18,879 nucleotides of DNA from a virus: the UHGV virus genome UHGV-1689020; one strand, given 5' to 3'. Shown here in pieces: positions 1 through 16,552 of this stretch (position 1 is the first letter of the stretch; every line of letters begins with the position of its first letter). The position numbers and the translations under genes are program-made. The notes beneath the pieces were generated by a model. The model worked only from the letters and a program-made list of their open reading frames with translations, did no database searches and was not told where the DNA came from.

Positions 1-44
1 ATTCCCCATTATACGCGCGTATAATGGGGAATTATGTGCTGATT
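1..44. repeat. telRL: telRL/telO-like protelomerase target site (telomere resolution palindrome); left outer arm cut off by the window start
   Basis: nt 1-32 ATTCCCCATTATACGCGCGTATAATGGGGAAT is a perfect 32-bp palindrome centred on CGCG; the core CATTATACGCGCGTATAATG matches my recollection of the N15 telO core; nt 33-44 TATGTGCTGATT looks like the right outer repeat whose inverted partner would lie left of position 1; sits directly upstream of a protelomerase gene. Confidence 0.8.
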
Positions 45-207
45 TTTAGAACAAAGTCAAGGAACAAATTTTGACGTTCCGATATTGTGTTTTTGTTTAT
101 TATCCGTCATTATGTTCTGTTAGTTTGAAGCTAAGTTAACGCGTTATTAGTTATCTTATTCTCAAATTGTGTTACGATAATCAGAGCTGATAATCAGGAG
201 AGGAAAG

Positions 208-2121
208 ATGAGCAAAGTAAAAATCGGTGAATTAATAAACTCACTTGTTAGCGATGTTGAGTCAATAGATAACTCTGACCGTCCTCAAGGGGAAAAAACA
301 AAAAAAATAAAGGCTGTTGCATTAAAATTTAAAAATGCATTATTTAATGATAAGCGAAAGTTTAGGGGGAAAGGATTAGAAAAAAGAATTACAGCCAACA
401 CCTTCAATGCCTATATGAGCAGGGCCAGAAAACGGTTTGATGATAAACTTCATCATAGCTTTGAAAAAAATATACATCGCCTATCTGAAAAGTATCCTTT
501 ATATAATGAGGAGCTATTGTCATGGCTTTCTCTACCTGCTGCCGATATTCGCCAGAGAATGTCAGCTTTACAGGCAAAATTAAAATTAATTCTCCCTTTA
601 TCAGAAGATTTATCTAATATCAGAATTGGTGATAACAAAAGTCATAATAAGTTATTAAAATTATCAAATAAATATAAAGAGTGGCAATTCGCCATATCTG
701 ATTTAACTAGCGATAACTGGAAAGATAAGCGCGATTATTTATATAAATTACTACAGCAAGGATCTGCCTTACTTGAGGAGTTGAATCAGCTAAAAGTTAA
801 CCATGAGATTCTCTATCATCTTCAACTAAGCCCTGCCGAACGCGCATCTATCCAGCAACGATGGGCGGACGTTCTGCACAATAAGAAACGTAACGTGGTG
901 GTCATTGATTACCCTAAATATATGCAAGCTATTTACGATATTATAAATAGCCCTGCTACATTAAATAATCTAAACACTCGTTCAGGTATGGCTCCTTTGG
1001 CATTTGCACTTGCTGCATTGTCAGGAAGACGAATGATTGAGATTATGTATCAAGGTACATTTACTGTTTCTGGTAAGTATACCGTTGATTTTTTAGGCCA
1101 AGCAAAAAAAAGAACTTCTGATGATATAACCAGAAAAATATATACATTATGCGAAGCAAAAACATTTGTTTATTTAATAAATGTACTTCGCTCATGCCCA
1201 GCAGCATCTGATTTTGATGATGTCGTTAAAGGTTATGGAGATAACGACACACGCTCTGAAAACGGACGGATTAATGCCATATTAGCAAAGGCTTTTAACC
1301 CGTGGGTTAAATCATTTTTCAAAGATGACCGCCGTGTTTATAAAGATAGTCGTGCTATTTATGCCCGTATTGCGTATGAAATGTTTTTCCGCGTAGATCC
1401 TCGTTGGAAAAACGTAGATGAGGATGTTTTCTTTATGGAAATTTTAGGCCATGACGATGAAAACACTCAATTACACTATAAGCAATTCAAGCTGGCCAAC
1501 TTCTCAAAGACATGGAGGCCAAATACTGGAAACGAAAATACCAGGCTGGAAGCATTGCAGCAGCTTGATGACGAAATGCCAGGATTCGCCAGAGGAGATG
1601 CCGGGGTTCGTCTGCATAACACAGTTAAGCAGCTGGTAGAGCATGACCCCTCTATAAAAATCACGAACAGCACTCTAAGAGCATTCAAATTTAGCCCTAC
1701 AATGATTAGTCGATACCTGGAATTTGCTGCTGATGCTCTGGGGCAATTTGTTGGCGAAAATGGACAATGGCAGCTGAAAATAGATTCTCCAGAAATCGTT
1801 ATGCCTGACGAAGAAGAGCTGGAAGCAATACCTGAACAGACGGATGAATTATCAGAGGATGACGATCTGGATGACGACGAAATTGAGATAGAGGAAGAGG
1901 AAGAGGAAGAGGAAGAGGAAGAGGAAGAGAGCGTAGAAGAACAGCAACCGCCCGCGCCTTCTTCACCTGTATCTAAGCCGGTATTTAAGCCTGTGAGAAA
2001 TATTGGTGATGGCTCATACGTTGTTGAGTTTCATTATAATGGCCAGAATTATGCTTGGTCCGGCAGTGCAAACAGCCCTATATCAGCAATGCAGTTAGCA
2101 TGGCTGACATATTTCGGATAA
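208..2121 (+). CDS. telN: protelomerase (telomere resolvase), N15 TelN-like
   Basis: 637-aa ORF; N-terminus MSKVKIGELIN...FNDKRKFRGKGLEKRITANTFNAYMSRARKRFDDKLHHSF and long internal stretches match my recollection of N15 TelN nearly residue for residue; acidic C-terminal linker; AGGAGAGG Shine-Dalgarno before the ATG; adjacent to the telO-like palindrome. Confidence 0.93.
   Translation: MSKVKIGELINSLVSDVESIDNSDRPQGEKTKKIKAVALKFKNALFNDKRKFRGKGLEKRITANTFNAYMSRARKRFDDKLHHSFEKNIHRLSEKYPLYNEELLSWLSLPAADIRQRMSALQAKLKLILPLSEDLSNIRIGDNKSHNKLLKLSNKYKEWQFAISDLTSDNWKDKRDYLYKLLQQGSALLEELNQLKVNHEILYHLQLSPAERASIQQRWADVLHNKKRNVVVIDYPKYMQAIYDIINSPATLNNLNTRSGMAPLAFALAALSGRRMIEIMYQGTFTVSGKYTVDFLGQAKKRTSDDITRKIYTLCEAKTFVYLINVLRSCPAASDFDDVVKGYGDNDTRSENGRINAILAKAFNPWVKSFFKDDRRVYKDSRAIYARIAYEMFFRVDPRWKNVDEDVFFMEILGHDDENTQLHYKQFKLANFSKTWRPNTGNENTRLEALQQLDDEMPGFARGDAGVRLHNTVKQLVEHDPSIKITNSTLRAFKFSPTMISRYLEFAADALGQFVGENGQWQLKIDSPEIVMPDEEELEAIPEQTDELSEDDDLDDDEIEIEEEEEEEEEEEEESVEEQQPPAPSSPVSKPVFKPVRNIGDGSYVVEFHYNGQNYAWSGSANSPISAMQLAWLTYFG
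1891..1929 (+). repeat. (GAGGAA)n hexanucleotide tandem repeat encoding the poly-Glu tract of TelN
   Basis: six and a half perfect tandem GAGGAA units, translated as the E-run in ...EIEIEEEEEEEEEEEEEESVEE. Confidence 0.9.
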
Positions 2122-2132
2122 AGCATACGGTA

Positions 2133-2165
2133 AAGGCACCGAATTATCGGTGCCTTGTTGTGTGG
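2133..2165 (+). terminator. rho-independent terminator candidate after telN
   Basis: AAGGCACCGA-ATTA-TCGGTGCCTT, a 10-bp perfect stem with 4-nt loop, 12 nt after the telN stop, followed by GTTGTGTGG (T/G-rich, not a clean U-tract). Confidence 0.55.
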
Positions 2166-2166
2166 T

Positions 2167-2331
2167 CTACCTCGCCTGCCCCTTTTCGTCCTCATCCAAC
2201 TTTCTGATGGCCGTAGAATCAATACCCGCCGCCATACACACATCAGATGCAACAAACCACGGTTCGCCGTTAATCATCACTACACGAACCTGATGCTCTT
2301 CCTGAAAGGAAAAGACTGCTAACGCGCTCAT
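2167..2331 (-). pseudogene. truncated Bro-N/KilA-N domain antirepressor-like ORF (54 codons)
   Basis: hand translation of the minus strand gives MSALAVFSFQEEHQVRVVMINGEPWFVASDVCMAAGIDSTAIRKLDEDEKGQAR*; the F.F....VR....GEPWFVA.DV...G motif is the N-terminal signature of Bro-N antirepressor domains, but the ORF stops mid-domain; AAGGAGG upstream; its ATG overlaps the stop of the upstream ORF (ATGA); below the length cut-off of the supplied ORF track. Confidence 0.5.
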
Positions 2332-2561
2332 TCAGCCTCCTTATCGTGCAGCAATTGCGACGAGAGCGATGCTGAATAACCCTGTGCTTCGTGTGTTAGC
2401 TCACACGCAATTTGAAGGAGTTTCCCTGCTTCTGAGAGATAAATCGACGCCTCACAACTGGAGATTGTCCGATGGGCTGATGATACGAGCGCATAGACCT
2501 GAGCCAGACGTTCATCCAACGATTCCAGCAGGCCAACAGTGTTCATTTTTACCTGATTCAT
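2328..2561 (-). CDS. hypothetical small helical protein, middle gene of the anti-immunity-type operon
   Basis: 77-aa ORF; GAGGTGG upstream of the ATG; ATGA overlaps with both neighbouring ORFs indicate translational coupling. Confidence 0.55.
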   Translation of the reverse strand: MNQVKMNTVGLLESLDERLAQVYALVSSAHRTISSCEASIYLSEAGKLLQIACELTHEAQGYSASLSSQLLHDKEAE

Positions 2562-2722
2562 GCAGCCACCTCGCGCACCGGAATACGGGCAGACAATACC
2601 AGGACAAACCGGCTGGCGAACTGGCGACGAGCTTCCCGTTCAGATGACGCGATGGTGGAAAGATGATGGATGTGTGACTTTTTGTCTGTGCGAACGATTG
2701 CCGCAAATTTGAATTTGAACAT
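2558..2722 (-). CDS. small basic protein, possibly Icd-like (first gene of the anti-immunity-type operon)
   Basis: hand translation MFKFKFAAIVRTDKKSHIHHLSTIASSEREARRQFASRFVLVLSARIPVREVAA* (54 aa); GGAG 9 nt upstream of the ATG; stop overlaps the ATG of the next ORF; not in the ORF track (below cut-off); the Icd assignment is from position and faint similarity recalled from memory only. Confidence 0.45.
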   Translation of the reverse strand: MFKFKFAAIVRTDKKSHIHHLSTIASSEREARRQFASRFVLVLSARIPVREVAA

Positions 2723-2770
2723 GGTATGCACTCCGTTTAATTGGTCGTGCTACCACCAGAGTTCCTACGC

Positions 2771-2940
2771 TCTATATGGCGGTAGCCCAGACGGGGGTAG
2801 GAATACCGGTAAACGAAGAAACCGGCCAGCTAAAAGCTGCCCCATCTGAGCCACCATAAATTTGGTGTACGCAGATTTTACACACAAAAAAACACGCTGG
2901 CGCGTGTTGTGCGCTTCATTTACTCGGGTTCCTACGCCCG
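2771..2940 (-). ncRNA. candidate C4/CI/CA-like antisense regulatory RNA and leader region
   Basis: on the minus-strand transcript, GGGCGUAGGAACCC (from + 2926-2939) and GAGCGUAGGAAC (from + 2761-2772) are direct repeats flanking UUCCUACCCCC (from + 2793-2803), which is complementary to both (10/11 and about 9/11); an intrinsic terminator lies between the first repeat and the complementary element; exact RNA ends unknown. Confidence 0.3.
2881..2908 (-). terminator. rho-independent terminator inside the leader of the anti-immunity-type operon
   Basis: minus-strand reading AACACGC-GCCA-GCGTGTT followed by TTTTTTTGTGTG (7-bp GC-rich stem, 4-nt loop, U-tract). Confidence 0.55.
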
Positions 2941-2967
2941 GCTACGGGATTTACCGTAGCGGAGTAA

Positions 2968-2997
2968 ACTTTACCGTCAAAACGACGCGCACGTCAA
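2968..2997 (-). promoter_or_regulatory. candidate sigma70 promoter for the leftward anti-immunity-type operon
   Basis: minus-strand TTGACG (from + 2992-2997), 18-nt spacer, TAAAGT (from + 2968-2973); -10 is weak, so the call is tentative. Confidence 0.3.
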
Positions 2998-3016
2998 TAA
3001 TTTGCAAAGACATTTT

Positions 3017-3036
3017 ACCCCGTGACCAGTCACGGG
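3017..3036. promoter_or_regulatory. palindrome family B copy 1 (CCCCGTGAC-CA-GTCACGGGG), operator-like site upstream of the candidate promoter
   Basis: 20-bp 9-2-9 palindrome; its core CGTGAC-NN-GTCACG recurs at 7574-7587 and 14960-14973; lies between the stop of the 3099-3386 gene and the candidate -35. Confidence 0.6.
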
Positions 3037-3098
3037 GACAGGTGTTTTTATAGTTTGCTTGAACGAGTGATCAGAAGTTGATCGTTAATCAAAGGCCA

Positions 3099-3386
3099 TT
3101 ATTGATTAAGAGATTGGAAATACCTAACTAACTTACCGGCATCATCACATTTTTCTTTATCTTCGTCCTTAACATAGCCGCGACAAAAGGCTGAATAAAA
3201 TTTTGCATTTTCAGAAGCAAAAGCAGCCGTCGAAAGGAGCAGCTCTTTGCATGACTCTTTTGATGCAGCATCGGGATTATTTTTACATGCAAGGTCCGCT
3301 GATGAGTTAATAACAGAAATGCTATCTTCCTGGGCATAAACCGCAGCAGAAAAGGCAAAACATAAAACAAAAATAAAACTCTTCAC
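3099..3386 (-). CDS. small secreted or periplasmic cysteine-containing protein, function unknown
   Basis: ORF in track as 3099-3410; preferred start is the GTG at 3384-3386, preceded by AGGAGA at about 7 nt; predicted signal peptide MKSFIFVLCFAFSAAVYA then QEDS...; mature part of about 76 aa with 4 Cys. Confidence 0.6.
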   Translation of the reverse strand: MKSFIFVLCFAFSAAVYAQEDSISVINSSADLACKNNPDAASKESCKELLLSTAAFASENAKFYSAFCRGYVKDEDKEKCDDAGKLVRYFQSLNQ

Positions 3387-3413
3387 TTTATCTCCTGTAA
3401 CAGTCATCACAAT

Positions 3414-3809
3414 TCAATCAACTTTTTTAGCATCAGCCATACGATTCAACCAGAAATCAACAATCGGTTGCTCATCTACAGAATGTTTACCAGGTATAAC
3501 TCGCCAGCTATCTTGCGAAAATCTGCCGTACTTACGCGGGAATAGGCCTTTCTTTATCTCCCGCCATGTACTAGGAAAACCATCCACAAAAGTACCAATT
3601 AACAGGAGAGGGACAAAAATCAGAGCTACAAACCATCGTGCAATAAAGTGTTCAACAACAACATTTTCACCGTTGTAGTAATACGCATACGCATCCAATA
3701 TGCGAATTTTCCTTACCTTAAAAATAGCCTTATGCTGAGAACGACTTAACTTGATACGAATGTATCCCTTATCCAAAGGGGATTCGTATTTGTATGATTG
3801 AACAGCCAT
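3414..3809 (-). CDS. single-pass membrane protein, function unknown
   Basis: ORF in track as 3414-3821; preferred start is the ATG at 3807-3809, just after the upstream stop; one hydrophobic helix WFVALIFVPLLLIGTFV flanked by basic residues. Confidence 0.55.
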   Translation of the reverse strand: MAVQSYKYESPLDKGYIRIKLSRSQHKAIFKVRKIRILDAYAYYYNGENVVVEHFIARWFVALIFVPLLLIGTFVDGFPSTWREIKKGLFPRKYGRFSQDSWRVIPGKHSVDEQPIVDFWLNRMADAKKVD

Positions 3810-3811
3810 TT

Positions 3812-4141
3812 TTAACCCCACTCACCATCAGCAAACAAAGCGTTATACTCTGATAATGGTAAATGATGCCCCTCAATTGCCAGATTAAGCCCCAAACGGG
3901 TAGATGGGTGTTCCTTATCTGGCTCCTCCTCCCACAATTCAGAAGCTAAAGAAGCTAAACGCTCAGCCGCTTTCACGTAGTTTTCTGTCCTGAACCAACC
4001 CAAATTAATCCCACCATCAGTGATCGCCCAAGCTACTTTCTTCTCTTCTTCCTGAATAGCCTTAATGCGTCGATCGCATTCATCCCGGCAGAACTGCAGC
4101 TGACGGTAATCAAGTTTGTCTAAAAATGCAGTCGTCGACAT
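3812..4141 (-). CDS. hypothetical acidic cytoplasmic protein
   Basis: 109-aa ORF; GGGGAG 9 nt upstream of the ATG; first gene of a tight three-gene minus-strand cluster downstream of repA. Confidence 0.6.
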   Translation of the reverse strand: MSTTAFLDKLDYRQLQFCRDECDRRIKAIQEEEKKVAWAITDGGINLGWFRTENYVKAAERLASLASELWEEEPDKEHPSTRLGLNLAIEGHHLPLSEYNALFADGEWG

Positions 4142-4199
4142 ATTCTTACTCCCCGTTCACCGAAAAATCACGATTTCCACATACGATAATATCCACTGA

Positions 4200-7100
4200 T
4201 TACCCAAAGAAAGCGCCCTGCTCTTCGTAGCTGCATGAGCTATTCCCCGTAATGTATTCACGTAACCGCCGCAGCTCATTGCTGGAAAGGTGATCCATGA
4301 ACTCTGTGAGGTACAGAGATGCAAACGTCATAGCTATGCTGGCTGATGACCATGATGACATAGTGGCCAACTCCTCACTGGAAAGCGCACTCATCGCCCA
4401 GGACTCAGGTACAGCCACTGGCAACACGGCCAAAGCCTCAGAAATTACTGAATGAGGGGCGTTTTGAACCTGCTCGTTTGTGGATCGCGTTTTATCATCC
4501 ATATATATATTGAGATCCAAATCGCGATCCATTTCGATGGCTGTCTTCTCGGCTTTACGCGTTTTTAGGGTTAGGCCATCTTTCTGACGCTGAACAAGAA
4601 TATCCAGCATAAATGCCGCTGATTCAGGCTCAACAAAACGCAAGGTTGGACGCTTATCGCCGTCTCTGCCGCGACGTTTACCTGTTTTAAGGCCAAGAGA
4701 GTCGCAAATGTTTTTAAACAACGCTTCCGGCACTTTAGGCTTCCCTTTTGGCGTCATAAAACCACCAATGTGCAGAACGTTATTCAACAGGTCACGGCGT
4801 TCGGCTGTCATGAGGTTATCTCGAGCGAATTTGAGACGCTCCTGAGTCGCCTCGCCGGTCATAGTCTCAGGGTTGATACCGCAGTCGATAAAGTACTGCC
4901 GGAGAGTTGCTGATTTAAGCGCATAGAAACCGCGCGCCCCGACTTCAACAGTAGGAGTAGCTTTTACCTTGTGATCGATTATTCCAGGGAATTTAGTTTT
5001 AAAGACATCATCAGCCTGCTCGCGAGTCATCGCGGTCACTACAAAATATTGCCACTGTCCCGCCTGACGGTATGCGTAGGTAAAATTGATGGCTGCTTCT
5101 TCCCGGTCGTAACGACGAGCTGTTACCTCATCTAAAAGCATTGTTTCATAGCGGCGAACTTTGTCTCGAGCACCATCGAAATAGAATTTCAGCGTGCCTT
5201 CTTCAACCGGTAGTTTCAGTTCGTTTTCAATATCCCAGCGGACAAGTTTTGCCTGTTCTTCAAGCGTCAGCGCGCGTTTTTTTAGCAGTTTTTCACGCTC
5301 TGATTCTTGTGGAGTTTCTGTATTGAGGTGCAGATCCAGTGTCTGTTCCCACACAATATCCCGCGCTTCTTTACGCAGATCTTTACCGATATCATTCGCA
5401 GCATAATCGGTGGCCAGCGGTGATACCTTATAACCGTCGCTGTGCATGATGCAGATCATGTTGCTGGCGTAGTCGTTACGCGCAGTCGCTTCAATTGCGG
5501 CTGCTTTAATTTTCATCCTGGTAAAGTCGGTATTGGCCACCCCCATTGATATACGGTCGCCATCGAAAACGACATCCGTAAGTTCACCGTTCATACCTGC
5601 GGTAGCAAGCAATGCCTGGGCGAATGCTCGTTCTATTTTTTGCGGGTCAGTTTCACGTTTTGCACGAGCTTTATCAAAGCCGATAATAAATTCTTTTGCT
5701 GTACGGTCGCGGCGTAGCATTTGCACTGCGTCGCTGGGTACAACTTCACCACAGAACATGCCGAAATGACGGTCAAAATGTTTTTGCTCAATCGACACGC
5801 CGGATGAAATAGACGGGCTATAAATCAGGCCGTCGTATTTTTTGACCATCTTTTTCGGTTGATTGGTAAATGCTTCAACTTCTGGCTCTGGTTTGTTTTT
5901 CTGGTTTACACACAGAAATTTCTTACCAGGAAAATGCATTCTCAGGGTGGCTGTCACATCTTCTGCAAAGGTGGAGCTGTCGGTGGCCAACATGATTTTT
6001 TCGCCATCCGATACAGCTTTCACCACCTCGGTCATGATGCGATCTTTTTCTGTATAAAAAACCCGGATTGGCTCACCTGTTTCGCGGTTGCGAACATCAA
6101 CAGGTAATTCAATTACGTGGATCTGCAGCCATGCCGGTAAACCTAGTTCTTCACGGCGTTTCATAGCCAGTTCAGCCAGGTCAACCAGCAGATCGTTCGC
6201 ATCAGCATCCACCATTATTGGGTGTTGTTCCGTTCTGGCCAGCGCGTCAATTAGCGTATTGAATACAGCCACTGGGTTTTCCATAGCCCGACCGGAAAGA
6301 ACGGCACGTAGCCCTTGTGTGGCCTCGTCAAAGCCAAAATAGTCGTGCTGGCGCATCAACGGTTGCCAGCAGTTTTTAACAATCGAGTTTATGCAGATGG
6401 TCAGTTTACTGGCGTATGGAGCCATTTCCTGATAGCCAGGGTCCTGATAGTGCAGGATATCGGCTTTTACACCTTTTCCTTCTGTCATCATTTCCCACAG
6501 GCCACCAATAAGGGAGACACGGTGAGCAACAGAGATACCACGTTCTGAGCTATGCATTAACGGTCGTAACAATCCAGTAGATTTGCCGGAACCCATACCA
6601 GCACGGACGATGACTATCCCCTGTAGTGATTGCACGTACTTCAGGAGATCATCGGTCATTACCGAAGTTTCAAAACGCTTATAGGTGATATGTTGAGGGC
6701 GTTTATTGGGATCAGTTATGCGTTCGCTGAAAGAGCGCGGAGCCTGGGCAATACGGCACTTTTTATTCAGGCGACGGGCAATGTGGTCTTTTACCGTAGC
6801 GCGATAGATATTTTCCAGTCCCATTTCACGCAGAACGATGCAGAACATGTTAAATAAATCTGACGGACTGTTAGGAACCGGGCAGGTTAGCATGCCAATA
6901 TCCACCGCTCTCAGCAGCTCTTTGGCAAAAGTACGACGGTTATCCCGCTTAATTGTCTTCAGGCGGTTGAGCGTCAGAGATAGCAAATCAGTACCGGTTT
7001 TCAGGCGGTTTGCTGTTGCAAATAGTTGACGTGCTGTTTCACGAAGTCCACGTAGTTTGTGCAGGTCGTTGAAGTCACTGCACTCCATTTGCGGATCGTC

Positions 7101-8195
7101 TTCAAAAGTTGGATAGACGCAGCGGACATCGTTGAATTTCGATAAGATTTCATAGCCAGTCCGCAGGCCGGTATTCCCTTTTCCTTCTGTGGCAGATTTC
7201 CGGTCATTATCCAGTGCGCAGGTGATTTTTACCGCCGGGTACATGTTTACCAGTTGTTCCACAACATGAACCATGTTGTTAGCGGATACAGCGACAACCA
7301 CAGCGTCAAAGCGTTTATCTTTTTTCGTGGCAAGCCAGATGGATGCACCAGTAGCAAAACCTTCTGTAACAGCGATGTTTTGCGCCCCTTTCAGCTCACC
7401 GATAACAAAGCAGGCACCGACGAAATCGCCGCTGGTTACTGCGCTGGTCTGGTATTTCCCACCTTGTTTGTCGATTCGCTGCCAACCCACAATACGACCA
7501 TCGTAACGACCGTCCAGGTGAGCCAGAGGGATAGCCATATATGTGGTTGGTCCCCGACTCCATTTCGCACTGTCGTGACTGGTCACGCGACGCACATCAC
7601 ATGAACTAAAAACGTCACGAATACCTTTTTTAATCGCATATGGCCATGAGCCGTCTTCAGCCGGAGCATGTTCCCACGCGCTGTGGAATGCCAGCCATCC
7701 CAGCAAACGTTCATGGTCCATTTGGTTGTTTTTCAGGTCATTAATTCGTTTTTGTTCTTCACGGCGACGACGTGCTTCGGCCTGACGTTCTATTCTTTCC
7801 CGTTCTTCTTCCGGTTGTGCGACCACGGTCGCATTATTCCGTTGTTGCTCACGGCGATATTCAGAAAACAGGAAGGAGAAACCGCTCCATGAGCCAGCAT
7901 CGCTGCCTTTATGGACGAAGTTAATGAACGGGTAATCAATCCCTTTGCTGTGTTCCAGCCGGGAGTAAATTTCTACGCGTCCTTTCAGGCTCTTTTCGAG
8001 AGCTTCTGGAGATGTTTTATTGTATGAAGAGTAACGCTCAACCCCCCCGCGAGGGTTGAGTTGGATGTTGTCGGAACAGGCAGGCCAGTTGATACCAGCC
8101 ATCTGTGCCAGCTCGGTTAGTTCATCCCGTGCTGCTTCAATTAGCGAGAACGGATCGCTGCCAAAGCGATCCGCATAGAAATCGTTTAATGTCAT
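4200..8195 (-). CDS. repA: multifunctional replication protein RepA (primase-helicase), N15 RepA-like
   Basis: 1331-aa ORF; Walker A motif GMGSGKST in the central part; size, orientation and position between telN and cB match N15 repA as I recall it (about 1300 aa). Confidence 0.88.
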   Translation of the reverse strand: MTLNDFYADRFGSDPFSLIEAARDELTELAQMAGINWPACSDNIQLNPRGGVERYSSYNKTSPEALEKSLKGRVEIYSRLEHSKGIDYPFINFVHKGSDAGSWSGFSFLFSEYRREQQRNNATVVAQPEEERERIERQAEARRRREEQKRINDLKNNQMDHERLLGWLAFHSAWEHAPAEDGSWPYAIKKGIRDVFSSCDVRRVTSHDSAKWSRGPTTYMAIPLAHLDGRYDGRIVGWQRIDKQGGKYQTSAVTSGDFVGACFVIGELKGAQNIAVTEGFATGASIWLATKKDKRFDAVVVAVSANNMVHVVEQLVNMYPAVKITCALDNDRKSATEGKGNTGLRTGYEILSKFNDVRCVYPTFEDDPQMECSDFNDLHKLRGLRETARQLFATANRLKTGTDLLSLTLNRLKTIKRDNRRTFAKELLRAVDIGMLTCPVPNSPSDLFNMFCIVLREMGLENIYRATVKDHIARRLNKKCRIAQAPRSFSERITDPNKRPQHITYKRFETSVMTDDLLKYVQSLQGIVIVRAGMGSGKSTGLLRPLMHSSERGISVAHRVSLIGGLWEMMTEGKGVKADILHYQDPGYQEMAPYASKLTICINSIVKNCWQPLMRQHDYFGFDEATQGLRAVLSGRAMENPVAVFNTLIDALARTEQHPIMVDADANDLLVDLAELAMKRREELGLPAWLQIHVIELPVDVRNRETGEPIRVFYTEKDRIMTEVVKAVSDGEKIMLATDSSTFAEDVTATLRMHFPGKKFLCVNQKNKPEPEVEAFTNQPKKMVKKYDGLIYSPSISSGVSIEQKHFDRHFGMFCGEVVPSDAVQMLRRDRTAKEFIIGFDKARAKRETDPQKIERAFAQALLATAGMNGELTDVVFDGDRISMGVANTDFTRMKIKAAAIEATARNDYASNMICIMHSDGYKVSPLATDYAANDIGKDLRKEARDIVWEQTLDLHLNTETPQESEREKLLKKRALTLEEQAKLVRWDIENELKLPVEEGTLKFYFDGARDKVRRYETMLLDEVTARRYDREEAAINFTYAYRQAGQWQYFVVTAMTREQADDVFKTKFPGIIDHKVKATPTVEVGARGFYALKSATLRQYFIDCGINPETMTGEATQERLKFARDNLMTAERRDLLNNVLHIGGFMTPKGKPKVPEALFKNICDSLGLKTGKRRGRDGDKRPTLRFVEPESAAFMLDILVQRQKDGLTLKTRKAEKTAIEMDRDLDLNIYMDDKTRSTNEQVQNAPHSVISEALAVLPVAVPESWAMSALSSEELATMSSWSSASIAMTFASLYLTEFMDHLSSNELRRLREYITGNSSCSYEEQGAFFG
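4481..4531. other. candidate replication origin element inside the 3' part of repA
   Basis: 9-bp inverted repeat TGGATCGCG ... CGCGATCCA flanking a 33-bp AT-rich spacer containing (AT)5 and three GATC sites within about 50 bp; the N15 ori is reported to lie within the 3' end of repA (recalled from literature). Confidence 0.35.
7574..7587. repeat. palindrome family B copy 2 (CGTGAC-TG-GTCACG), inside repA coding sequence
   Basis: exact 14-bp core shared with 3019-3034 (inverted centre) and 14960-14973. Confidence 0.6.
7818..7833. repeat. palindrome family A copy 1 (TGCGACC-AC-GGTCGCA), sopC/centromere-like, inside repA coding sequence
   Basis: 16-bp 7-2-7 palindrome identical to copies at 10261-10276 (inverted) and 16787-16802; differs from the F sopC SopB site TGGGACCACGGTCCCA (recalled) at one position per arm. 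Confidence 0.65.
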
Positions 8196-8318
8196 TTTTT
8201 AGCCATTCCATGCGAATTATGTTTTTTCGGGTTGAAAAAATCCGCAGGAGCAGCCACAATAAACACATCTTGAATTGACGGAATCCGTCGCGTTGTTGTG
8301 GCTGCTTCCTGAAAAGGA

Positions 8319-8346
8319 CCCGAGTTTGCCGACTCGGGTTTTTTTT
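8319..8346. terminator. hairpin plus T-tract between cB and repA, possible bidirectional terminator
   Basis: CCCGAGT-TTGCCG-ACTCGGG followed by TTTTTTTT on the + strand; on the minus strand the same hairpin is followed by UCCUUUUCAGG; also a 10-bp inverted repeat GCAGCCACAA (8250-8259) / TTGTGGCTGC (8296-8305) just upstream. Confidence 0.45.
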
Positions 8347-8440
8347 CGTCTTTTTTCTGCTGCTGTAACCTGAGTCAACCCACAGAACATATGCCCTGCA
8401 TTAAACCAGATTTACAGCAAACAATAAACCCCGTATTAAG

Positions 8441-9037
8441 TCATCTACCCTCAACCATGAATGATTTGATCGTTCCGACTATTTGGTGAACAAATTCAAG
8501 ATCGCTTTTCCTGAAGATGGCGCGTTGTGAGTTTGTTCCATCCAGATAGTAATTTTCATCATCAAAACGGGCCAGGCGCTGGATAGTGATATTTCCTGCA
8601 GTATCACGAACCAGAACATCCTCGCCGGGGACCAGTTCCAGCGCAGAATCGACCAGGAGAAAATCGCCTGGCTGATAGTTTCCCTGCGTAAGATTGCTGA
8701 TAGTTAACGCATACACAGTATTGCGCTGGCTGATGAATGGCAGGAATCGCTCAGTATTTGGAACCTGTCCCGGCTTCCACTCTTCATCCGGCCCACTTTC
8801 AGTTGTGCCAATAACAGGAATGCGGTCAGGGTCATATTCTGTCCCATATAGCACCCAATGCACTGGCTTGCGTAAGCACTTAGCCAGGGCAATACCTATC
8901 TCCAGTGACGGCATTACGTCGCCACGTTCTAAGTTTTGGACGCCTGCTATAGAGATATCGACAGCCTCAGCAACTTCTCGCAACGTCAGCTTCATCTCTA
9001 AACGGCGTGCTTTCAGTCGTTCGCCTCGTGTTTTCAT
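8441..9037 (-). CDS. cB: prophage repressor CB (HTH-XRE N-domain, CI/LexA-like C-domain apparently lacking the catalytic Ser motif)
   Basis: 198-aa ORF; N-terminal HTH LTLREVAEAVDISIAGVQNLERG; C-terminal ...PGDFLLVD... fold signature but no GxSM motif; divergent from cro across an operator-containing intergenic region. Confidence 0.8.
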   Translation of the reverse strand: MKTRGERLKARRLEMKLTLREVAEAVDISIAGVQNLERGDVMPSLEIGIALAKCLRKPVHWVLYGTEYDPDRIPVIGTTESGPDEEWKPGQVPNTERFLPFISQRNTVYALTISNLTQGNYQPGDFLLVDSALELVPGEDVLVRDTAGNITIQRLARFDDENYYLDGTNSQRAIFRKSDLEFVHQIVGTIKSFMVEGR

Positions 9038-9059
9038 ACTGTAATCATAAATGATCTTC

Positions 9060-9075
9060 TTATAGCTGGCTATAA
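9060..9075. promoter_or_regulatory. immB operator O1 (TTATAGC-TG-GCTATAA)
   Basis: 7-2-7 palindrome with perfect arms, 23 bp upstream of the cB ATG in the cB-cro intergenic region. Confidence 0.6.
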
Positions 9076-9085
9076 AATTTATTTA

Positions 9086-9101
9086 TTATAGCTGGCTTTA
9101 A
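9086..9101. promoter_or_regulatory. immB operator O2 (TTATAGC-TG-GCTTTAA)
   Basis: second copy 26 bp from O1 with one arm mismatch; a TATAAT hexamer at 9117-9122 lies between it and the cro start. Confidence 0.55.
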
Positions 9102-9128
9102 TTGTTGTTTATTGTTTATAATAACAAC

Positions 9129-9350
9129 ATGAAACCAGAAGAACTTATTCGCCACTTTGGCAGTGTAGAAAAAGCAGCGGCAGGGGTAGGTGTAACACCC
9201 GGAGCTGTTTACCAATGGTTAACCGCTGGAGAGATTCCTTCATTGCGGCAAAGCGATATTGAAGTTCGTACTGCTTATAAGCTGAAGAGTGACTTTACAA
9301 CTCGGCGGGTAAAGCAGTCGATTAAGGAGAGTCGTAAGCGTGGAGCTTGA
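9129..9350 (+). CDS. cro: Cro-like HTH regulator
   Basis: track ORF 9102-9350 begins at a TTG; preferred start is the ATG at 9129 (MKPEELIRHFGSVEKAAAGVGVTPGAVYQW...); HTH motif; divergent from cB; no obvious Shine-Dalgarno, possibly short-leader transcript. Confidence 0.65.
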   Translation: MKPEELIRHFGSVEKAAAGVGVTPGAVYQWLTAGEIPSLRQSDIEVRTAYKLKSDFTTRRVKQSIKESRKRGA

Positions 9351-10050
9351 GTATATACGCAGCTGCGTCTCTACGGCATTGGCTGATGTTCATTATCGCC
9401 AGCGTGGCATTCTGGAGGTCCAGCTTGAGCAGATGCGTCTCGGTAGGTCAGGACGGTTTAACAATAAACCAGTCCGGTCAATCAGTGTGGGGGATGATAA
9501 CTCATACGAAGTGTCCGTTCCTGCTGAGCCGGTTAGATTCCACCAGGGGAAAACATTTAAACAATCATCAATGTTGCTCACTGATATTGATTTTCAGAGC
9601 GCCAGCTGGCGCAGGGCTATTGGTCAGTTGAATAACGAGGAATCAGCCTGGCTTTATTATTGCTACGGATGCAAGCCTGATTACAACAATGATGTGATTG
9701 TTTGTCAGTGGTTATGGCTTGATTTTCTGGTTGCTCATTCGGGGGGCGGCTTTAAAAAAATGAAGGCCTCCACGAAAAAAGCCATGCGGAAATTGATTTA
9801 TTACGCGGCACAGCAGGTTAAATCAGAACTTACGTGTGCTGAGGCAGTTGATGAGAGAGAACAGGACAGGCATCTGAGTTTTCTACTGAATATATCTATT
9901 GATAGCTGGAGACAAGATTATAAAGAACGCTGGCTTTTAATTAAGTCGCGATGTCTGAGCTTAAATCGAACTGCATTATTAAATGCGGCGGAGAAGCGCA
10001 GTGAAATCATCAAACGCCATCGGGCAGGAAGTGCCATTCTGCCTTTGTAA
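9340..10050 (+). CDS. putative late-gene antiterminator (Q-like), assigned by cB-cro-Q synteny
   Basis: 236-aa ORF starting at GTG 9340 with AAGGAGA 10 nt upstream; overlaps the cro stop by 11 nt; function is inferred from position only, I could not confirm Q motifs by eye. Confidence 0.45.
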   Translation: MELEYIRSCVSTALADVHYRQRGILEVQLEQMRLGRSGRFNNKPVRSISVGDDNSYEVSVPAEPVRFHQGKTFKQSSMLLTDIDFQSASWRRAIGQLNNEESAWLYYCYGCKPDYNNDVIVCQWLWLDFLVAHSGGGFKKMKASTKKAMRKLIYYAAQQVKSELTCAEAVDEREQDRHLSFLLNISIDSWRQDYKERWLLIKSRCLSLNRTALLNAAEKRSEIIKRHRAGSAILPL

Positions 10051-10303
10051 ACAAGTTATGTTCAGGAAACCGTCGAAGCCAGAATTAAGGTATTCGGGGG
10101 TAAGAAATGAATATGTTATCTGGTGTCCAACTTGTGGTTACAGGACACGACCAGATAGTAATAAGCAGTCTGTAATTGCCGATTGGTATTTATCAAATCA
10201 GCCAGGTAATAAGCATATAGAAAATCTTTGGATTAAGCGTTACTTGGAAATCAGAGAGGGTGCGACCGTGGTCGCACAAGAAAATGAAAATAACGCCATT
10301 TAA
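9983..10303 (+). CDS. small Cys-containing protein (CxC ... CxxC), function unknown; alternative start at ATG 10058
   Basis: 106-aa ORF overlapping the 3' end of the Q-like gene; contains FCLC and CPTCG; no clear Shine-Dalgarno for either start; its 3' end carries palindrome A copy 2. Confidence 0.35.
   Translation: MRRRSAVKSSNAIGQEVPFCLCKQVMFRKPSKPELRYSGVRNEYVIWCPTCGYRTRPDSNKQSVIADWYLSNQPGNKHIENLWIKRYLEIREGATVVAQENENNAI
10261..10276. repeat. palindrome family A copy 2 (TGCGACC-GT-GGTCGCA, inverted orientation), sopC/centromere-like
   Basis: exact reverse-complement of the 16-mer at 7818-7833 and 16787-16802; located in the overlap of two small ORFs after the Q-like gene. Confidence 0.65.
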
Positions 10304-10487
10304 GCAGGGGCCGATGACGCATGATGAAGCAGAGCGTCTTTCAGATACTTATCGGCGGCGTGGTAAGAAAGTTCTGGTTGTTCGTTCTGATTTTTTAGGT
10401 GATGGATATTGCGTTTATGTTCATTTACCTGAATCAGAAAGAACGCCAAAACCATCCAGAACATATCAACAGAAAATTTGGGTATAG
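10284..10487 (+). CDS. hypothetical small protein
   Basis: track ORF 10260-10487 starts at a GTG inside the palindrome; first in-frame ATG is 10284; no strong Shine-Dalgarno, start uncertain. Confidence 0.4.
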   Translation: MKITPFKQGPMTHDEAERLSDTYRRRGKKVLVVRSDFLGDGYCVYVHLPESERTPKPSRTYQQKIWV

Positions 10488-10510
10488 ATAAACGTTGAGG
10501 AGAATTATTC

Positions 10511-11110
10511 GTGACTAATCAGATTATTTACGACAGGAAACGGTCTGATGTAATGATTGATCTTGAAACAATGGGTACTAACACATGTGCTCCAATTGTT
10601 TCTATCGGGGCAGTGTTTTTTTCTCCAGAAAGTGAGGAATTAGGTCCTACTTTTTATGTGCCAGTGAATCTCAGAAGCTCGATGTTGAATGGAGGTATCG
10701 CCGATGGTGATACCATTTTATGGTGGTTGAAACAGAGCAAGGAAGCCAGAGCCGCTATTTGTACTAATGATGCCCTTGATATTAAGGATGCACTTTTTGA
10801 ATTATCACACTTTATTACTTGCCATGCATGTAATTTAAAAAAGTTGAAAGTATGGGGAAATGGAGCAACGTTCGATAATGTAATTTTACGCGGTGCTTAT
10901 GAGCGCGTTGGCTTAGCCTGTCCGTGGGAATATTTTAATGATCAGGATGTTCGAACAATCGTTAATCTTGGTCAGTTTATTGGTTTTAATCCTAAAAAAG
11001 ATATGCCATTTGATGGCGAACGACACAATGCCTTGGCTGATGCTATTCATCAGGCTAAATATGTATCCGCAATTTTCTCCCGTCTTGTAAAAGGGCAAGG
11101 AGAATCGTAA
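10511..11110 (+). CDS. DEDDh-type 3'-5' exonuclease (DnaQ-like fold)
   Basis: 199-aa ORF, GTG start with GAGGAG 8 nt upstream; motifs MIDLETMG (exo I), WGNGATFDNVIL (exo II), ERHNALADAIHQAKY (exo III with His). Confidence 0.75.
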   Translation: MTNQIIYDRKRSDVMIDLETMGTNTCAPIVSIGAVFFSPESEELGPTFYVPVNLRSSMLNGGIADGDTILWWLKQSKEARAAICTNDALDIKDALFELSHFITCHACNLKKLKVWGNGATFDNVILRGAYERVGLACPWEYFNDQDVRTIVNLGQFIGFNPKKDMPFDGERHNALADAIHQAKYVSAIFSRLVKGQGES

Positions 11111-11529
11111 TGGCAAAGGCTTTTACACCAGAACAGAGGGAAGAACTGAATAAACAAATTGTGGAACTCGTGCGCCTGAATGGACGAGGAACGGTTAGGC
11201 AACTTGCGGATGAAACTGGTATTAGCCGGTGTGCTGTTAGTCGTTTATCAAGAGAGCTTGCTGCCAGTGGTGATTTGTATATCTCTGGCTCCGGGATATT
11301 TCTGTCTGCACAAGCACGCAAGGACTGGCAAAACGCCCGTAAAAAACTATCAAGAGTAAAGCCGAAGAAATCGGTAGTGGTTGATCCAGACCTTATCTGG
11401 TCATTACCTGACGGAGAAATACGTCGTTACGACAGGCGCTTGAACATGATTTGTCACGATTGCCGGAAAAGTGAAGTTATGCAGCGTGTGCTGGCTTTTT
11501 ATCAGGGAAATTTACAGGAGGTGGCGTAG
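11110..11529 (+). CDS. HTH DNA-binding protein, function unknown
   Basis: 139-aa ORF; ATG overlaps the upstream stop (TAATG); AAGGAGA upstream; HTH-like segment GTVRQLADETGISRCAVSRLSREL. Confidence 0.6.
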   Translation: MAKAFTPEQREELNKQIVELVRLNGRGTVRQLADETGISRCAVSRLSRELAASGDLYISGSGIFLSAQARKDWQNARKKLSRVKPKKSVVVDPDLIWSLPDGEIRRYDRRLNMICHDCRKSEVMQRVLAFYQGNLQEVA

Positions 11530-11819
11530 TGAATATCGACACCACGATAACGATCGATACGGCCCTAAATATCGGTCTGGCACTTCTCGGTTGGTTTTAC
11601 ATCATGTTCAGTGCGGGGAAGTGGGCGGCCTCTGTTTTTCTAAAGCAGTGGGGAAAGCACCGCAAACAGGAAAGACGCCAGAAAGTGTTAGAGGCGTTCT
11701 ATGACGCATTTGAACTTAGCCGCATTGAGCCAGGCACAACAGCCAAGATAGCGACAAAAGGCGACCTGATGATAGTGATGTTCCGACAGGAGAGAGCAGA
11801 GAAAGGGGAATCAGCATGA
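11529..11819 (+). CDS. small membrane protein, function unknown
   Basis: GTG start overlapping the upstream stop (TAGTG) with AGGAGGTGG upstream; hydrophobic segment LNIGLALLGWFYIMFSAG. Confidence 0.5.
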   Translation: MNIDTTITIDTALNIGLALLGWFYIMFSAGKWAASVFLKQWGKHRKQERRQKVLEAFYDAFELSRIEPGTTAKIATKGDLMIVMFRQERAEKGESA

Positions 11820-12448
11820 AATTTTCCAAATTTTCTGAGTTGGTGAATCGTATTTTGTCCAACAACCACAGCCATCGTCGCGATATGGATGTAACAATCG
11901 TTATTCATTCGCCTGGCAGCATTGGTTCAACACCCTCAGTTGAGGTTCAGTCAATTCACGCTGGTTTTGATTGGGATTCCGGGAAAGTGCTGATTTTTCC
12001 ATCACAGCCACTGACCACGCTAACACCAGAGCAGGTTGCTGATATCACTGATAGTGTGCGCAAAGGTCAGTCTTGGCACGCATATCAGGAATATAAGAAG
12101 CATAAAGAGCAGTTGGAAAAATTGTCGATTGAACTGGATGCCGCAAAACAGCGCATTGCAGAGCTGGAGGGTAATCGCACGGCGCTGGCGGCGGAGAATG
12201 CGGGGCTTAAACAGTCGGAGAAGGAATTTAATAACTTCTGTCGTCAGGAGTACTACGGTTGGGAGGACAACTTCACGGAAACCCCAGCCACCGACGCTTT
12301 CCTGGCTGAAATTGAACGCAAAGCAATCCGCAAGTTCATTAACAGCATTGAACACATCCTGCGTGACAAGCTGTCTCCGTATGATACCGAAGAGATGCTT
12401 GAGGCTATGCGTATTTTTCTGGAAGAACAGGAAGGTGAGCAAAAATGA
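11816..12448 (+). CDS. hypothetical protein with coiled-coil region
   Basis: 210-aa ORF, ATGA overlap with the upstream gene; heptad-like region LEKLSIELDAAKQRIAELEGNRTALAAENAGLK. Confidence 0.55.
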   Translation: MKFSKFSELVNRILSNNHSHRRDMDVTIVIHSPGSIGSTPSVEVQSIHAGFDWDSGKVLIFPSQPLTTLTPEQVADITDSVRKGQSWHAYQEYKKHKEQLEKLSIELDAAKQRIAELEGNRTALAAENAGLKQSEKEFNNFCRQEYYGWEDNFTETPATDAFLAEIERKAIRKFINSIEHILRDKLSPYDTEEMLEAMRIFLEEQEGEQK

Positions 12449-12759
12449 CGATCACAAAACAACGTGTAGAAGAAATCATATCCCGTATTGAAATGTATGG
12501 GCATGGTGCCGGGTATACCGCTGATGAGGTTTATGACCTTGCTGTACTGGCGCTGAATTTATCAAATATCGCAAAACTCAAGCGATACGAGCTTGATATG
12601 GATGGTTGTGACTCGTTCGGTCAGGATTGTGGCGCTGACATGACTGAAGATTCTGATGGCGATTATGTCCTGTTTGATGACGTAGTTAAGTTGTTTGAGT
12701 TTGATACATTCGAAAGCCCAGTAAAGGAGGCAGCCAGTGAGCGGAAAAAGAATGACTAA
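12445..12759 (+). CDS. hypothetical acidic protein
   Basis: 104-aa ORF, ATGA overlap with the upstream gene, GGTGAG upstream. Confidence 0.5.
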   Translation: MTITKQRVEEIISRIEMYGHGAGYTADEVYDLAVLALNLSNIAKLKRYELDMDGCDSFGQDCGADMTEDSDGDYVLFDDVVKLFEFDTFESPVKEAASERKKND

Positions 12760-12961
12760 CAGAGAGCTTGTCGATGCCGCGATTAAGCTTGCTGGTGATT
12801 TTTATTCAATGATGGGGTACACGCATCGCCCAGGCTTCAAATATTGGGAGTCTCCTCACCCGCAAGAGCAACTGGTATTTCAAATGGCCTGCCGTGCTTT
12901 TGAGGTTATTCGCGGTTCTGATGTGATGGACGCCGTTGCCGACTTGGAGGATGAAGAGTGA
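12737..12961 (+). CDS. hypothetical protein
   Basis: 74-aa ORF from GTG 12737 with AAGGAGG 6 nt upstream; overlaps the previous ORF by 23 nt. Confidence 0.5.
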   Translation: MSGKRMTNRELVDAAIKLAGDFYSMMGYTHRPGFKYWESPHPQEQLVFQMACRAFEVIRGSDVMDAVADLEDEE

Positions 12962-13506
12962 GCGAAATTAATTATCAGGCACTGCGTGATGCGGCAGAAA
13001 AGGCAACGAAAGGGAGCTACATCGTAGGGCATACATCTGTTAACCAGCACGGCAATTTAACAGGAGTTTTTGTTTGCCAAAAATGGAAAGGAGAACCCGG
13101 TGGCGTGATTGCAGAATGTCATGTTAACTGCCTGGTTGAAACAGATGCTCAGGCTTACGCAAACGCTGAATTTATTGCTGCCTTTAATCCAAATGTTGCG
13201 CTGGCACTACTGGATGAACGGGAAAGAAACCAGCAATACATAAAATCCCGCGACAAGGAGAACGAGGATATTGCGCTAACGGTAGGGAAGCTGCGCGTTG
13301 AGCTTGAAGCAGAAAAACAGCGGGCAAAAGTTCTATTTATGGAAAATGCTCGGCTTAAGTCAGGCATAGCCGGTCTGATACACCTCGGTATTCGATATGC
13401 AGATGTTGAGGTCATGAAAATTGCTGGAGATGCCCAGCTTTCTACCCCATGCACTGACAGCATCATAAACAGCATTGCAACAGGCATTCGCATCAAAGGA
13501 GAGTGA
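12958..13506 (+). CDS. Ead/Ea22-like protein
   Basis: 182-aa ORF from GTG 12958 (GGAGGA upstream); internal segment AEFIAAFNPNVALALLDERERN resembles the Ea22-family signature I recall (...NPATVLALLDE...); C-terminal coiled-coil. Confidence 0.55.
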   Translation: MSEINYQALRDAAEKATKGSYIVGHTSVNQHGNLTGVFVCQKWKGEPGGVIAECHVNCLVETDAQAYANAEFIAAFNPNVALALLDERERNQQYIKSRDKENEDIALTVGKLRVELEAEKQRAKVLFMENARLKSGIAGLIHLGIRYADVEVMKIAGDAQLSTPCTDSIINSIATGIRIKGE

Positions 13507-13507
13507 T

Positions 13508-13771
13508 ATGGCAACTTTAACAAAAAAAGAACGGGCATGGTTGAACGAATTACAGGACGTTCTTGATCGCTGCCCATCACCGAAAAAAATTGGTTTTTAC
13601 ACCATTGGCGATAAAAGCATTTACCTGTATGACCTGCGCCGCATGGATGAAATCATGGAGGCTCTTGATAATCGTTCGTCGATGGATTGGTGTGTTGCTG
13701 TCCATGATATGAATGCCGGATTTGATGAAAGGATTTTGTTCCCCTCATCAGTTGAAAGCACTGCGGGTTAA
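13508..13771 (+). CDS. hypothetical protein
   Basis: track ORF 13475-13771; preferred start is the ATG at 13508, preceded by AAAGGAGAG and 2 nt after the upstream stop. Confidence 0.5.
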   Translation: MATLTKKERAWLNELQDVLDRCPSPKKIGFYTIGDKSIYLYDLRRMDEIMEALDNRSSMDWCVAVHDMNAGFDERILFPSSVESTAG

Positions 13772-13781
13772 GGAGTAACAC

Positions 13782-14168
13782 ATGACCACTATTACCAAAG
13801 AGCGACTACTGACAATCAAACAGTGGCGCGAAACATACGGACCTGGTAGCAACGTTGTACTGCCAGCAGAAGAAGCGGAAGAACTGGCACGAATTGCTCT
13901 GGCATCGCTGGAAGCAAAACCAATAGGTGCATTCCACATTGCAGAACAGCAAGTTGACGGCACAAGTGACTACCTCAAGGATGGAGAATGGCCTATTGAT
14001 AATGGAATTATTGAGGTCTACGCCGCTCCACCCGTTCCAGTAGTACCGGAAGAAAAACCAATGCCTAATCCTCTTAGCATGTACGCGGTTGATGCTGTTG
14101 CCGCTATTGCAGAGGTGAGAGGCTGGAATGCCTGCCGCGCTGCTATGCTTCAGGGAAAAGGAGAGTGA
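13782..14168 (+). CDS. hypothetical protein
   Basis: 128-aa ORF, AAGGAG 7 nt upstream; begins MTTIT like the next gene. Confidence 0.55.
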   Translation: MTTITKERLLTIKQWRETYGPGSNVVLPAEEAEELARIALASLEAKPIGAFHIAEQQVDGTSDYLKDGEWPIDNGIIEVYAAPPVPVVPEEKPMPNPLSMYAVDAVAAIAEVRGWNACRAAMLQGKGE

Positions 14169-14169
14169 T

Positions 14170-14622: not shown

Positions 14623-14637
14623 TTTTCAGGAGGATTT

Positions 14638-14964
14638 ATGGCGCTGACACCGGCAGAACGGCAAAGGAGACGCAGGGAACGGTTGAAGAAGGAAGGCACA
14701 TCAAGACGGGAGTGGATTCTAGAACCTGACGAGTTACGTATGTTGGGGGAAATTTGTGTATTGCGTAGACCAGGGCGAGTTCCATATTCGGAGAACGAAG
14801 TCATTGGTTTGCTGATCAGGAAAAACTATAAGGAGCTGCAGAAGCAGCTATCTACTACTTGCCCGCGATGTGGTCAAAAAATGCCTGTTTCAGAATGCAT
14901 TTTTGATGGCGAAGGGTCATGCCACCTTACAACCACGAGGCTGAAACTTGCGCTCAAAGCGTGA
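14638..14964 (+). CDS. small basic protein with C-terminal Cys cluster (possible DNA-binding regulator)
   Basis: 108-aa ORF, AGGAGGA upstream; N-terminal LTPAERQRRRRERLKKEG, C-terminal CPRCG...C...C; stop codon lies inside palindrome B copy 3. Confidence 0.55.
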   Translation: MALTPAERQRRRRERLKKEGTSRREWILEPDELRMLGEICVLRRPGRVPYSENEVIGLLIRKNYKELQKQLSTTCPRCGQKMPVSECIFDGEGSCHLTTTRLKLALKA

Positions 14965-14973: not shown

Positions 14974-14982
14974 GAGGGATAA

Positions 14983-16539: not shown

Positions 16540-16552
16540 TTAGAGAGGCGTT

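Follow-up and report, generated by a model that had tools for sequence, protein, structure and literature searches.

The protelomerase TelN of phage N15 processes its target in vivo and in vitro with no more than the 56-bp telRL site (PMC3540006). All known protelomerases cut 6 bp apart, and in the target of TelK, the enzyme of Klebsiella phage phiKO2, the sequence CGCGCG lies between the two scissile positions (PMC3558466). Hairpins are shielded by TelN, which keeps SbcCD off them (PMC12624138). The N15 annotation contains an 'inverted repeat containing cut site for prophage formation' of 56 bp, that of phiKO2 a telRL, and both are equally placed upstream of the tel gene. Here, the virus genome UHGV-1689020 was analyzed, a stretch of 18,879 bp that starts with a palindrome followed by a telN-like gene and is referred to in full as the window. 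Very probably, the window represents the arm on the telN side (the 'left' arm of the prophage) of a temperate Escherichia telomere phage, or phage-plasmid, of the N15 type. It probably stems, as a whole contig, from the assembly of a human-gut metagenome or isolate. The element is not new; N15-like phage-plasmids are described in E. coli, Shigella and Klebsiella.

The window starts within a protelomerase target site

The initial annotation of the window had described a perfect palindrome with a telO-like core over the first 32 bases. These bases read ATTCCCCATTATACGC followed by GCGTATAATGGGGAAT, two arms of 16 nt each that are 100% complementary without any spacer, and the core as quoted in that annotation, CATTATACGCGCGTATAATG, is present, followed by TATGTGCTGATT at positions 33-44. 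The second-longest perfect palindrome of the window has arms of only 9 nt. In 200 shuffles the arms never exceeded 11 nt, and the base composition predicts about 5e-6 centres whose arms reach 16 nt or more.

Counted from the dyad, the right arm reads GCGTATAATGG GGA ATTATGTGCTGATT in the window, GCGTATAATGG ACT ATTGTGTGCTGATA in N15 and GCGTATAATGG GCT ATTATGTGCTGATT in phiKO2. Positions ±1-11, which form the 22-bp core, as well as positions 15-17 and 19-27 are identical in all three, and the only variable positions are 12-14 and 18. The outer repeat matches those of N15 and phiKO2. The flank difference to N15 that the initial annotation had given was right, with GGACTAT in N15 (...TAATGGACTATTGTGTGCTGATA) versus GGGGAAT in the window (...TAATGGGGAATTATGTGCTGATT). 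The central CGCGCG occupies positions 14-19 and corresponds to the 6-bp interval between the two scissile positions (interval according to PMC3558466). Whereas the whole right arm is contained in the window (17-44), just 16 nt of the left arm are; the 56-bp site reconstructed for this element is AATCAGCACATAATTCCCCATTATACGCGCGTATAATGGGGAATTATGTGCTGATT. The comparison supports the assignment of the palindrome as a putative telRL/telO target of the N15 family and not as part of an unrelated inverted repeat.

Among sister contigs encoding an identical TelN, the spacer is GGGGAAT in the window, L009 and L011, and GGGAAAT in L010. This G/A polymorphism lies at ±13 from the dyad (window position 29, mirror position 4). 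Since the identical protein occurs with both variants, this TelN evidently tolerates G or A at spacer position ±13. A changed TelN specificity, considered because the spacer differs from that of N15, was rejected as unsupported, as the same protein was found with two spacer variants. It is also conceivable, though improbable, that the tel palindrome, perfect over 54-56 bp, together with its spacer variants defines a TelN/telRL pair orthogonal to that of N15; the occurrence of both G and A with one TelN undercuts this idea.

A predicted protelomerase of the TelN/TelK type

The 637-aa TelN-like gene that had been announced about 175 bp downstream of the palindrome was found at this distance, with an ATG start (Table 1). 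All four TelK/ResT Pfam models were matched end to end, with 88.7-170.8 bits against cut-offs (gathering scores) of 27-28, and residues 1-536 align with the TelK crystal chain 2v6e (E=9e-295). By tblastn, identity amounts to 80.5% with N15 TelN, 78.9% with phiKO2 TelK and 43% with PY54 Tel, and to about 30% with enzymes of marine Vibrio and Halomonas. Together with a RepA that is 75% identical to its N15 counterpart, these values bear out the initial view that the element is a relative of N15 and not N15 itself.

In an alignment of the proteins from the window, PhiR46_1, N15, phiKO2 and PY54, residues R275, K300, K379, R382, H415 and Y424 are invariant, and Y424 aligns with Tyr425 of TelK once the 20-residue tag offset of the 2v6e chain is removed. 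In keeping with the TelK literature, we take these six residues to be the catalytic set. The equivalent list of TelA active-site residues provides a second basis for this assignment (PMC3558466). Past residue 536 comes a poly-acidic linker, followed by a small domain at the C-terminus (KPVFKP...YAWSG...AM..AW) that is conserved in every aligned phage enzyme. TelN's C-terminal domains are not required for hairpin protection (PMC12624138). Open reading frame (ORF) 208-2121 is a full-length protelomerase of the TelN/TelK type with predicted activity. The initial annotation had named a lack of protelomerase homology, or an inverted repeat of unrelated origin, as observations that would speak against its reading; homology was found throughout, and the repeat aligns with the tel sites of N15 and phiKO2.

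The perfect hexamer tract encoding part of the poly-Glu linker differs in length among near-identical relatives, the telN coding sequences of which measure 1902, 1908, 1914 or 1920 nt. The variation points to replication slippage within a tolerant linker.

Relatives of the element and the left side of telRL

By megablast, PhiR46_1 (PV340565) is 98.0% identical to the window, and its record begins at the 22-bp core, which is annotated there as 'telL site'. YDC107_1 (CP025712) was found among phages with 97.6%. Bases 1-4000 are covered to at least 80% by 17 E. coli and 25 plasmid records, the best being pAMSC3 (NZ_CP031108; 99.6%). Window positions 30-12121 match a 47.6-kb contig from NCBI with 99.99% identity, and the draft contig ABXWFM010000016 (GCA_047858445.1) represents the same element type. 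Over the tel site, telN and beyond, the named relatives span 97.6-99.99% nucleotide identity.

The initial annotation had predicted the partner of the palindrome and sopBA to the left of position 1, and both were found in circularized relatives. Two records deposited as circular, the MARGA_3 plasmid (L003) and the 19KM1803 plasmid (L005), carry tail-fibre genes, sopB-sopA, telRL and telN. The L005 site forms a perfect palindrome of 54 bp (±27; ATCAGCACATAATTTCCCATTATACGC followed by GCGTATAATGGGAAATTATGTGCTGAT), the two flanks of which are unrelated. Left of the dyad it reads ATCAGCACATAATTTCCC..., and sopA and sopB are located upstream. In L003 (positions 4001-4020) the left arm of telRL is degenerate (AACGAAACATAATTCCCCATTTTACGC) compared to the right arm and has T for A inside the otherwise invariant core; this may reflect genuine variation or an error made during polishing at a hairpin junction.

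Other relatives contain telN and its neighbours twice. In pAMSC3 (L004; 27,197 bp, corresponding to 2 x 13.6 kb) and YDC107_1 (L002) the two copies are mirrored around the dyad, a classic case of long reads snapping back at a hairpin end. Several 'complete' records (CP025712, NZ_CP031108, NZ_CP019258, CP088810 and others) are inverted duplications, arranged head to head with the dyad at their centre. Such records have sizes of 27-91 kb, and some were deposited as circular plasmids. Because the element has hairpin ends, these records arose by snap-back mis-assembly of a linear replicon of roughly 46 kb that ends in hairpins.

The start of the window as a probable replicon end

The mechanism is established for N15 TelN and phiKO2 TelK, and we infer it for the element in the window from about 80% identity, the identical 22-bp core and the conserved active-site positions. 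After infection, the genome would circularize at cos and a TelN dimer would bind telRL. Within CGCGCG, both strands would be cut at points that lie 6 bp apart and flank the dyad, with 3'-phosphotyrosine links formed via tyrosine 424. Each strand would then refold and rejoin its own complement, giving two covalently closed hairpins and a linear plasmid prophage in which telL adjoins telN and telR adjoins sopAB. RepA would replicate the prophage and thereby regenerate palindromic junctions, and TelN would resolve these replicated telomere junctions. By analogy with N15, end-bound TelN would shield the hairpins from SbcCD, and SopAB, encoded on the other arm outside the window, would partition the plasmid. 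Base 17 onward would represent the physical end of the prophage, and bases 1-16 would result from the assembler reading a short way round the hairpin.

The identical 637-aa TelN is encoded on at least 23 NCBI draft contigs, and telN lies at the contig end in all eight among those listed. Relative to the dyad, these eight contigs stop at +77, +38, -1, -12, -13, -13, -15 and about -22 nt. The overshoots of +77 and +38 are perfect mirrors. Both run beyond the 27-nt arm of the palindrome and into unique sequence flanking it on the telN side, and they therefore demand a hairpin template, as an intact circular telRL cannot give such sequences. Mirror images across the site were seen in L004, L009 and L010, and the complete-level record PEC011 ends exactly at base 17. 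The exact tel-flank pattern gave no match in a viral contig collection.

Since one end of the window lies inside an IS26 element in a position resembling a k-1 overlap and the other lies at the tel dyad, both ends look like assembler ends and the window is probably a whole assembly contig. A palindrome of 54-56 bp would not stop a large-k assembler, so that base 1 is probably a real replicon end. That the palindrome is flush with base 1 is uninformative, because any start inside the left arm of a longer palindrome would show it. Base 17 is thus likely to be the physical telL end, and bases 1-16 are likely to be read-through. Between the two options left by the initial annotation, a contig starting at a hairpin telomere or a window simply cut there, the indirect evidence favours the hairpin end, while the 16 extra bases of the window, being shorter than the 27-nt arm, cannot decide between a hairpin and an intact telRL.

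Alternative explanations

Several points weigh against a linear, active telomere element that ends at base 17. An intact perfect telRL would display the same 16 extra bases, which would fit circular or virion DNA equally well. The status of the window as a whole contig is deduced from its ends, and the evidence for linearity of this molecule is indirect, derived from contig-end statistics and the snap-back sequences of relatives. The IS26 end suggests k of about 99, for which an overshoot of about 49 nt would be expected from a well-covered hairpin and 16 nt were seen. Activity of TelN on the exact site with the GGGGAAT spacer is predicted by analogy. With its endolysin gene interrupted by IS26, the element may have lost the ability to finish a lytic cycle. 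K-mer arithmetic was also considered as a proof of the hairpin and dropped because its two results disagree; the 98-nt IS26 overlap indicates k of about 99, and a 16-nt overshoot equals (k-1)/2 for k=33. Part of these observations would be accounted for by an intact, unprocessed telRL in circular or virion DNA, in which case the sequence would run leftward into ...AATCAGCACATA and sopA and base 1 would be an arbitrary cut. Close relatives do have circular-topology records with telRL between sopA and telN, and the overshoot is below the expectation for large-k hairpin assembly. We nevertheless consider this explanation unlikely: the odd length of the window and its k-1-like end inside IS26 point to a whole contig, and a palindrome of 54-56 bp would not break a large-k assembly, yet the window and all eight sister contigs stop at the dyad and true snap-back sequence is present in sister contigs. 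An intact telRL would leave the N15-like identity standing and remove only the statement that base 1 is a replicon end.

It is extremely improbable that an assembly error or chimera formation, unrelated to biology, produced the first 16 bases or the palindrome as a whole. Clear mis-assembly into inverted duplications is seen in several public 'complete' relatives; however, these mis-assemblies themselves result from hairpin ends. Bases 17-44 alone reproduce the right arm of telRL, and this arm is found equally distant from telN in N15 and phiKO2 as well as in dozens of independent assemblies, among them circular assemblies whose left flank differs. More room has to be given to the idea that the element is a decayed remnant, i.e. 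a defective, lysis-incompetent linear or circularized plasmid instead of a functional phage, which we regard as possible though doubtful. It would fit the truncation of the endolysin by IS26, the reduction of antB/BRO beside telN to 54 codons versus 264 in N15, and the position of the structural arm outside the window. On the other hand, telN, repA, cB, cro and Q are full length, and the truncated BRO gene is common to many relatives including PhiR46_1, which was deposited as a phage genome. Decay would also leave the telomere interpretation unaffected.

An IS26 element in the endolysin gene

The other end of the window is marked by the junction with an IS26-family element at 18781/18782. IS26 cuts the gene of an RrrD-like endolysin after 98 of about 165 codons, so that only positions 3-66 of the 125 positions of the Phage_lysozyme profile are matched, and the called ORF of 113-114 aa runs into IS26. 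The junction did not occur in any of the 5,426 complete E. coli genomes, and its exact pattern had no match in the genome, metagenome and viral contig collections. A lookup of the 114-aa fusion ORF (first ATG) gave no match. The 113-aa version (second ATG) was found on five contigs of 10-20 kb, and the one listed is from a human-gut metagenome. This contig (L018; ERR209706, PRJEB1220, MEGAHIT k127, 16,083 bp) matches window positions 8492-18879 at 100% identity, and its end lies 126 nt (k-1) inside that IS26.

The insertion is the sole unusual detail of the element and a minor curiosity. It may mark a hairpin-ended linear plasmid locked into the plasmid lifestyle in human-gut Escherichia, possibly with cargo carried by IS26, for instance resistance genes, past the end of the contig, but we hold this to be quite improbable. 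A 2025 survey found antimicrobial resistance genes in no N15-like phage-plasmid.

Gene context and further features of the window

For 19 of the 33 ORFs in the window, homologues are present in the right arm of N15 with order and orientation kept, and about 14 accessory ORFs are without N15 homologue (Table 1). The gene assignments in this arm are backed by Pfam. The RepA proteins of relatives are annotated as 'CyRepA1 family', and the repA context makes the element a plasmid prophage. The toxin-antitoxin pair is likely a plasmid-addiction module conserved with N15. No tblastn match to N15 was obtained for the holin. Both sopAB, which is 96-99% identical in circularized relatives, and the structural arm lie outside the window, the sequence of which ends at the tel site; tail genes were seen in relatives.

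Table 1. Features of the window, with identities to N15 proteins where available (TelN domains are given in TelN residues).
Feature	Position	Strand	Remarks
Perfect 32-bp palindrome	1-32		Inner part of telRL protelomerase target; dyad between 16 and 17
telO core, 22 bp	6-27		CCATTATACGCGCGTATAATGG; identity to annotated N15 and phiKO2 sites
telN-proximal (telL) arm of telRL	17-44	+	Core half 17-27; variable spacer GGA 28-30; outer repeat ATTATGTGCTGATT 31-44
telN leader/upstream region	45-207	+	Block-wise homology to the same region of N15 and phiKO2
RGAACAHA motifs	48-55, 61-68, 111-118(-)		
Repeat	77-91, 159-173		TTCCGATATTGTGTT / TTCTCAAATTGTGTT
Ribosome-binding site	195-202	+	AGGAGAGG; 6 nt upstream of telN ATG
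telN	208-2121	+	637-aa protelomerase (telomere resolvase); ATG start; begins 175 nt after palindrome; 82% to N15 over residues 1-543
TelN domains	residues 4-78, 81-198, 257-427, 443-533		TelK_N; muzzle; ResT/TelK catalytic; stirrup (Pfam)
Hexamer tract	1890-1929	+	(AGAGGA)x6.7, perfect; encodes part of poly-Glu linker
GC-rich stem	2133-2156		10-bp stem (AAGGCACCGA/TCGGTGCCTT), 4-nt loop; just past telN stop; read from sequence
immA-like small genes	2328-2706		51-66% to N15
repA	4200-8195	-	1331-aa multidomain replication protein; 75% to N15 gp37
immB-like switch	8441-10050		cB, cro, Q
cB repressor	8441-9037	-	78% to N15
cro	9102-9350	+	87% to N15
Q-like antiterminator	9340-10050	+	67% to N15
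Gp49/RelE-like (HigB-like) toxin and HTH (HigA-like) antitoxin	15554-16197	-	85-86% to N15 gp49/gp48
N6/N4 methyltransferase	17003-18124		84% to N15
Holin	18220-18492		Between methyltransferase and lysozyme, as in N15
Lysozyme/endolysin	from 18489		44% to N15 (partial)
IS26-family element, first 98 nt	18782-18879	+	GGCACTGTTGCAAA..., then transposase start MNPFKGRHFQR; inserted in endolysin gene

The distance from the tel site to the telN start codon is about 165-190 nt in the window, N15 and phiKO2. The window contains 10 matches to the motif RGAACAHA, which was picked after inspection of the sequence, compared to 4.5 expected, and 3 of the 10 lie within the first 118 nt. In the circular relative L005, 6 of 8 matches fall inside 220 bp around telRL (3849-4068), on both sides, and in N15 the motif directly abuts both telRL ends. 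It may belong to an extended TelN occupancy region. A sigma-70 promoter scan of positions 1-2400 gave 8 sites versus a chance expectation of 6.6, none of them convincingly upstream of telN. Downstream of telN, the GC-rich stem sits where phiKO2 annotates a putative bidirectional terminator; of this stem, the scan flagged just a partial minus-strand version.

Beside this stem, the antB/BRO-N gene of the immA operon (2161-2325 region, minus strand) is a remnant of about 54 codons. The corresponding genes have 264 codons in N15 (gp30) and 258 in YDC107_1, and the remnant is common to many relatives. The segments 12168-14435 and 3861-4200 are absent or different in the closest complete relatives, for example PEC011, whereas the metagenome contig with 100% identity (L018) has them without change. 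An Ead/Ea22-like gene (12958-13506) lies in these segments, as do several ORFs without Pfam match. This is typical lambdoid accessory mosaicism.

Implications

The contig can be labelled as the telL-telN-repA arm of an N15-like linear phage-plasmid and has little discovery value. Contigs that start or end with CCATTATACGCGCGTATAATGG, or that show head-to-head duplications on this sequence, should be read as hairpin telomeres and not as circular plasmids or assembly failures. Because of the hairpin telomeres, several 'complete, circular' public records of the element are visibly wrong. The natural tel-site variants that occur with one TelN show a tolerated spacer position (±13), which may be of minor use for TelN/telRL ('doggybone') DNA engineering.

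Comparison with known systems

The alignment to the sites of N15, phiKO2 and PY54 that the initial annotation had proposed showed an identical core in N15 and phiKO2, and only the central TACGCGCGTA in common with PY54. N15 (Ravinvirus N15, NC_001901) shares the 22-bp telO core, the outer repeat (T)GTGCTGAT, an about equal distance to telN and the order telN, immA, repA, cB, cro, Q, toxin-antitoxin pair, methyltransferase and lysis genes. It differs in the spacer (ACT.. versus GGA.. in the window) and at position +18, which is G in N15 and A in the window. The N15 telRL has two mismatched positions, whereas the circular relative of the element in the window is perfect over 54 bp. In addition, megablast detected no nucleotide-level match between N15 and the window, and antB is truncated in the window.

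The closest relatives, PhiR46_1, YDC107_1, pAMSC3 and ABXWFM010000016, differ from the window in G or A at ±13, in the length of the poly-Glu linker and in the variable segments 3861-4200 and 12168-14435. Klebsiella phage phiKO2 has the identical core and is closest in the right-arm spacer and outer repeat (GGGCTATTATGTGCTGATT), but differs in host genus, in the left arm of telRL (ACAACAGCCC) and in a longer acidic linker of TelK. Yersinia phage PY54 shares the enzyme family and the layout of partition genes, palindrome and tel (PMC3540006); its Tel is 43% identical and its 42-bp palindrome has other arms. ResT of Borrelia and TelA of Agrobacterium belong to the same catalytic family (PF16684) and use the same cut-and-rejoin chemistry with a 6-bp stagger (PMC3558466). 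In contrast to the TelN of the window, they are without muzzle and stirrup domains, act on unrelated targets and are not phage-borne (PMC3558466).

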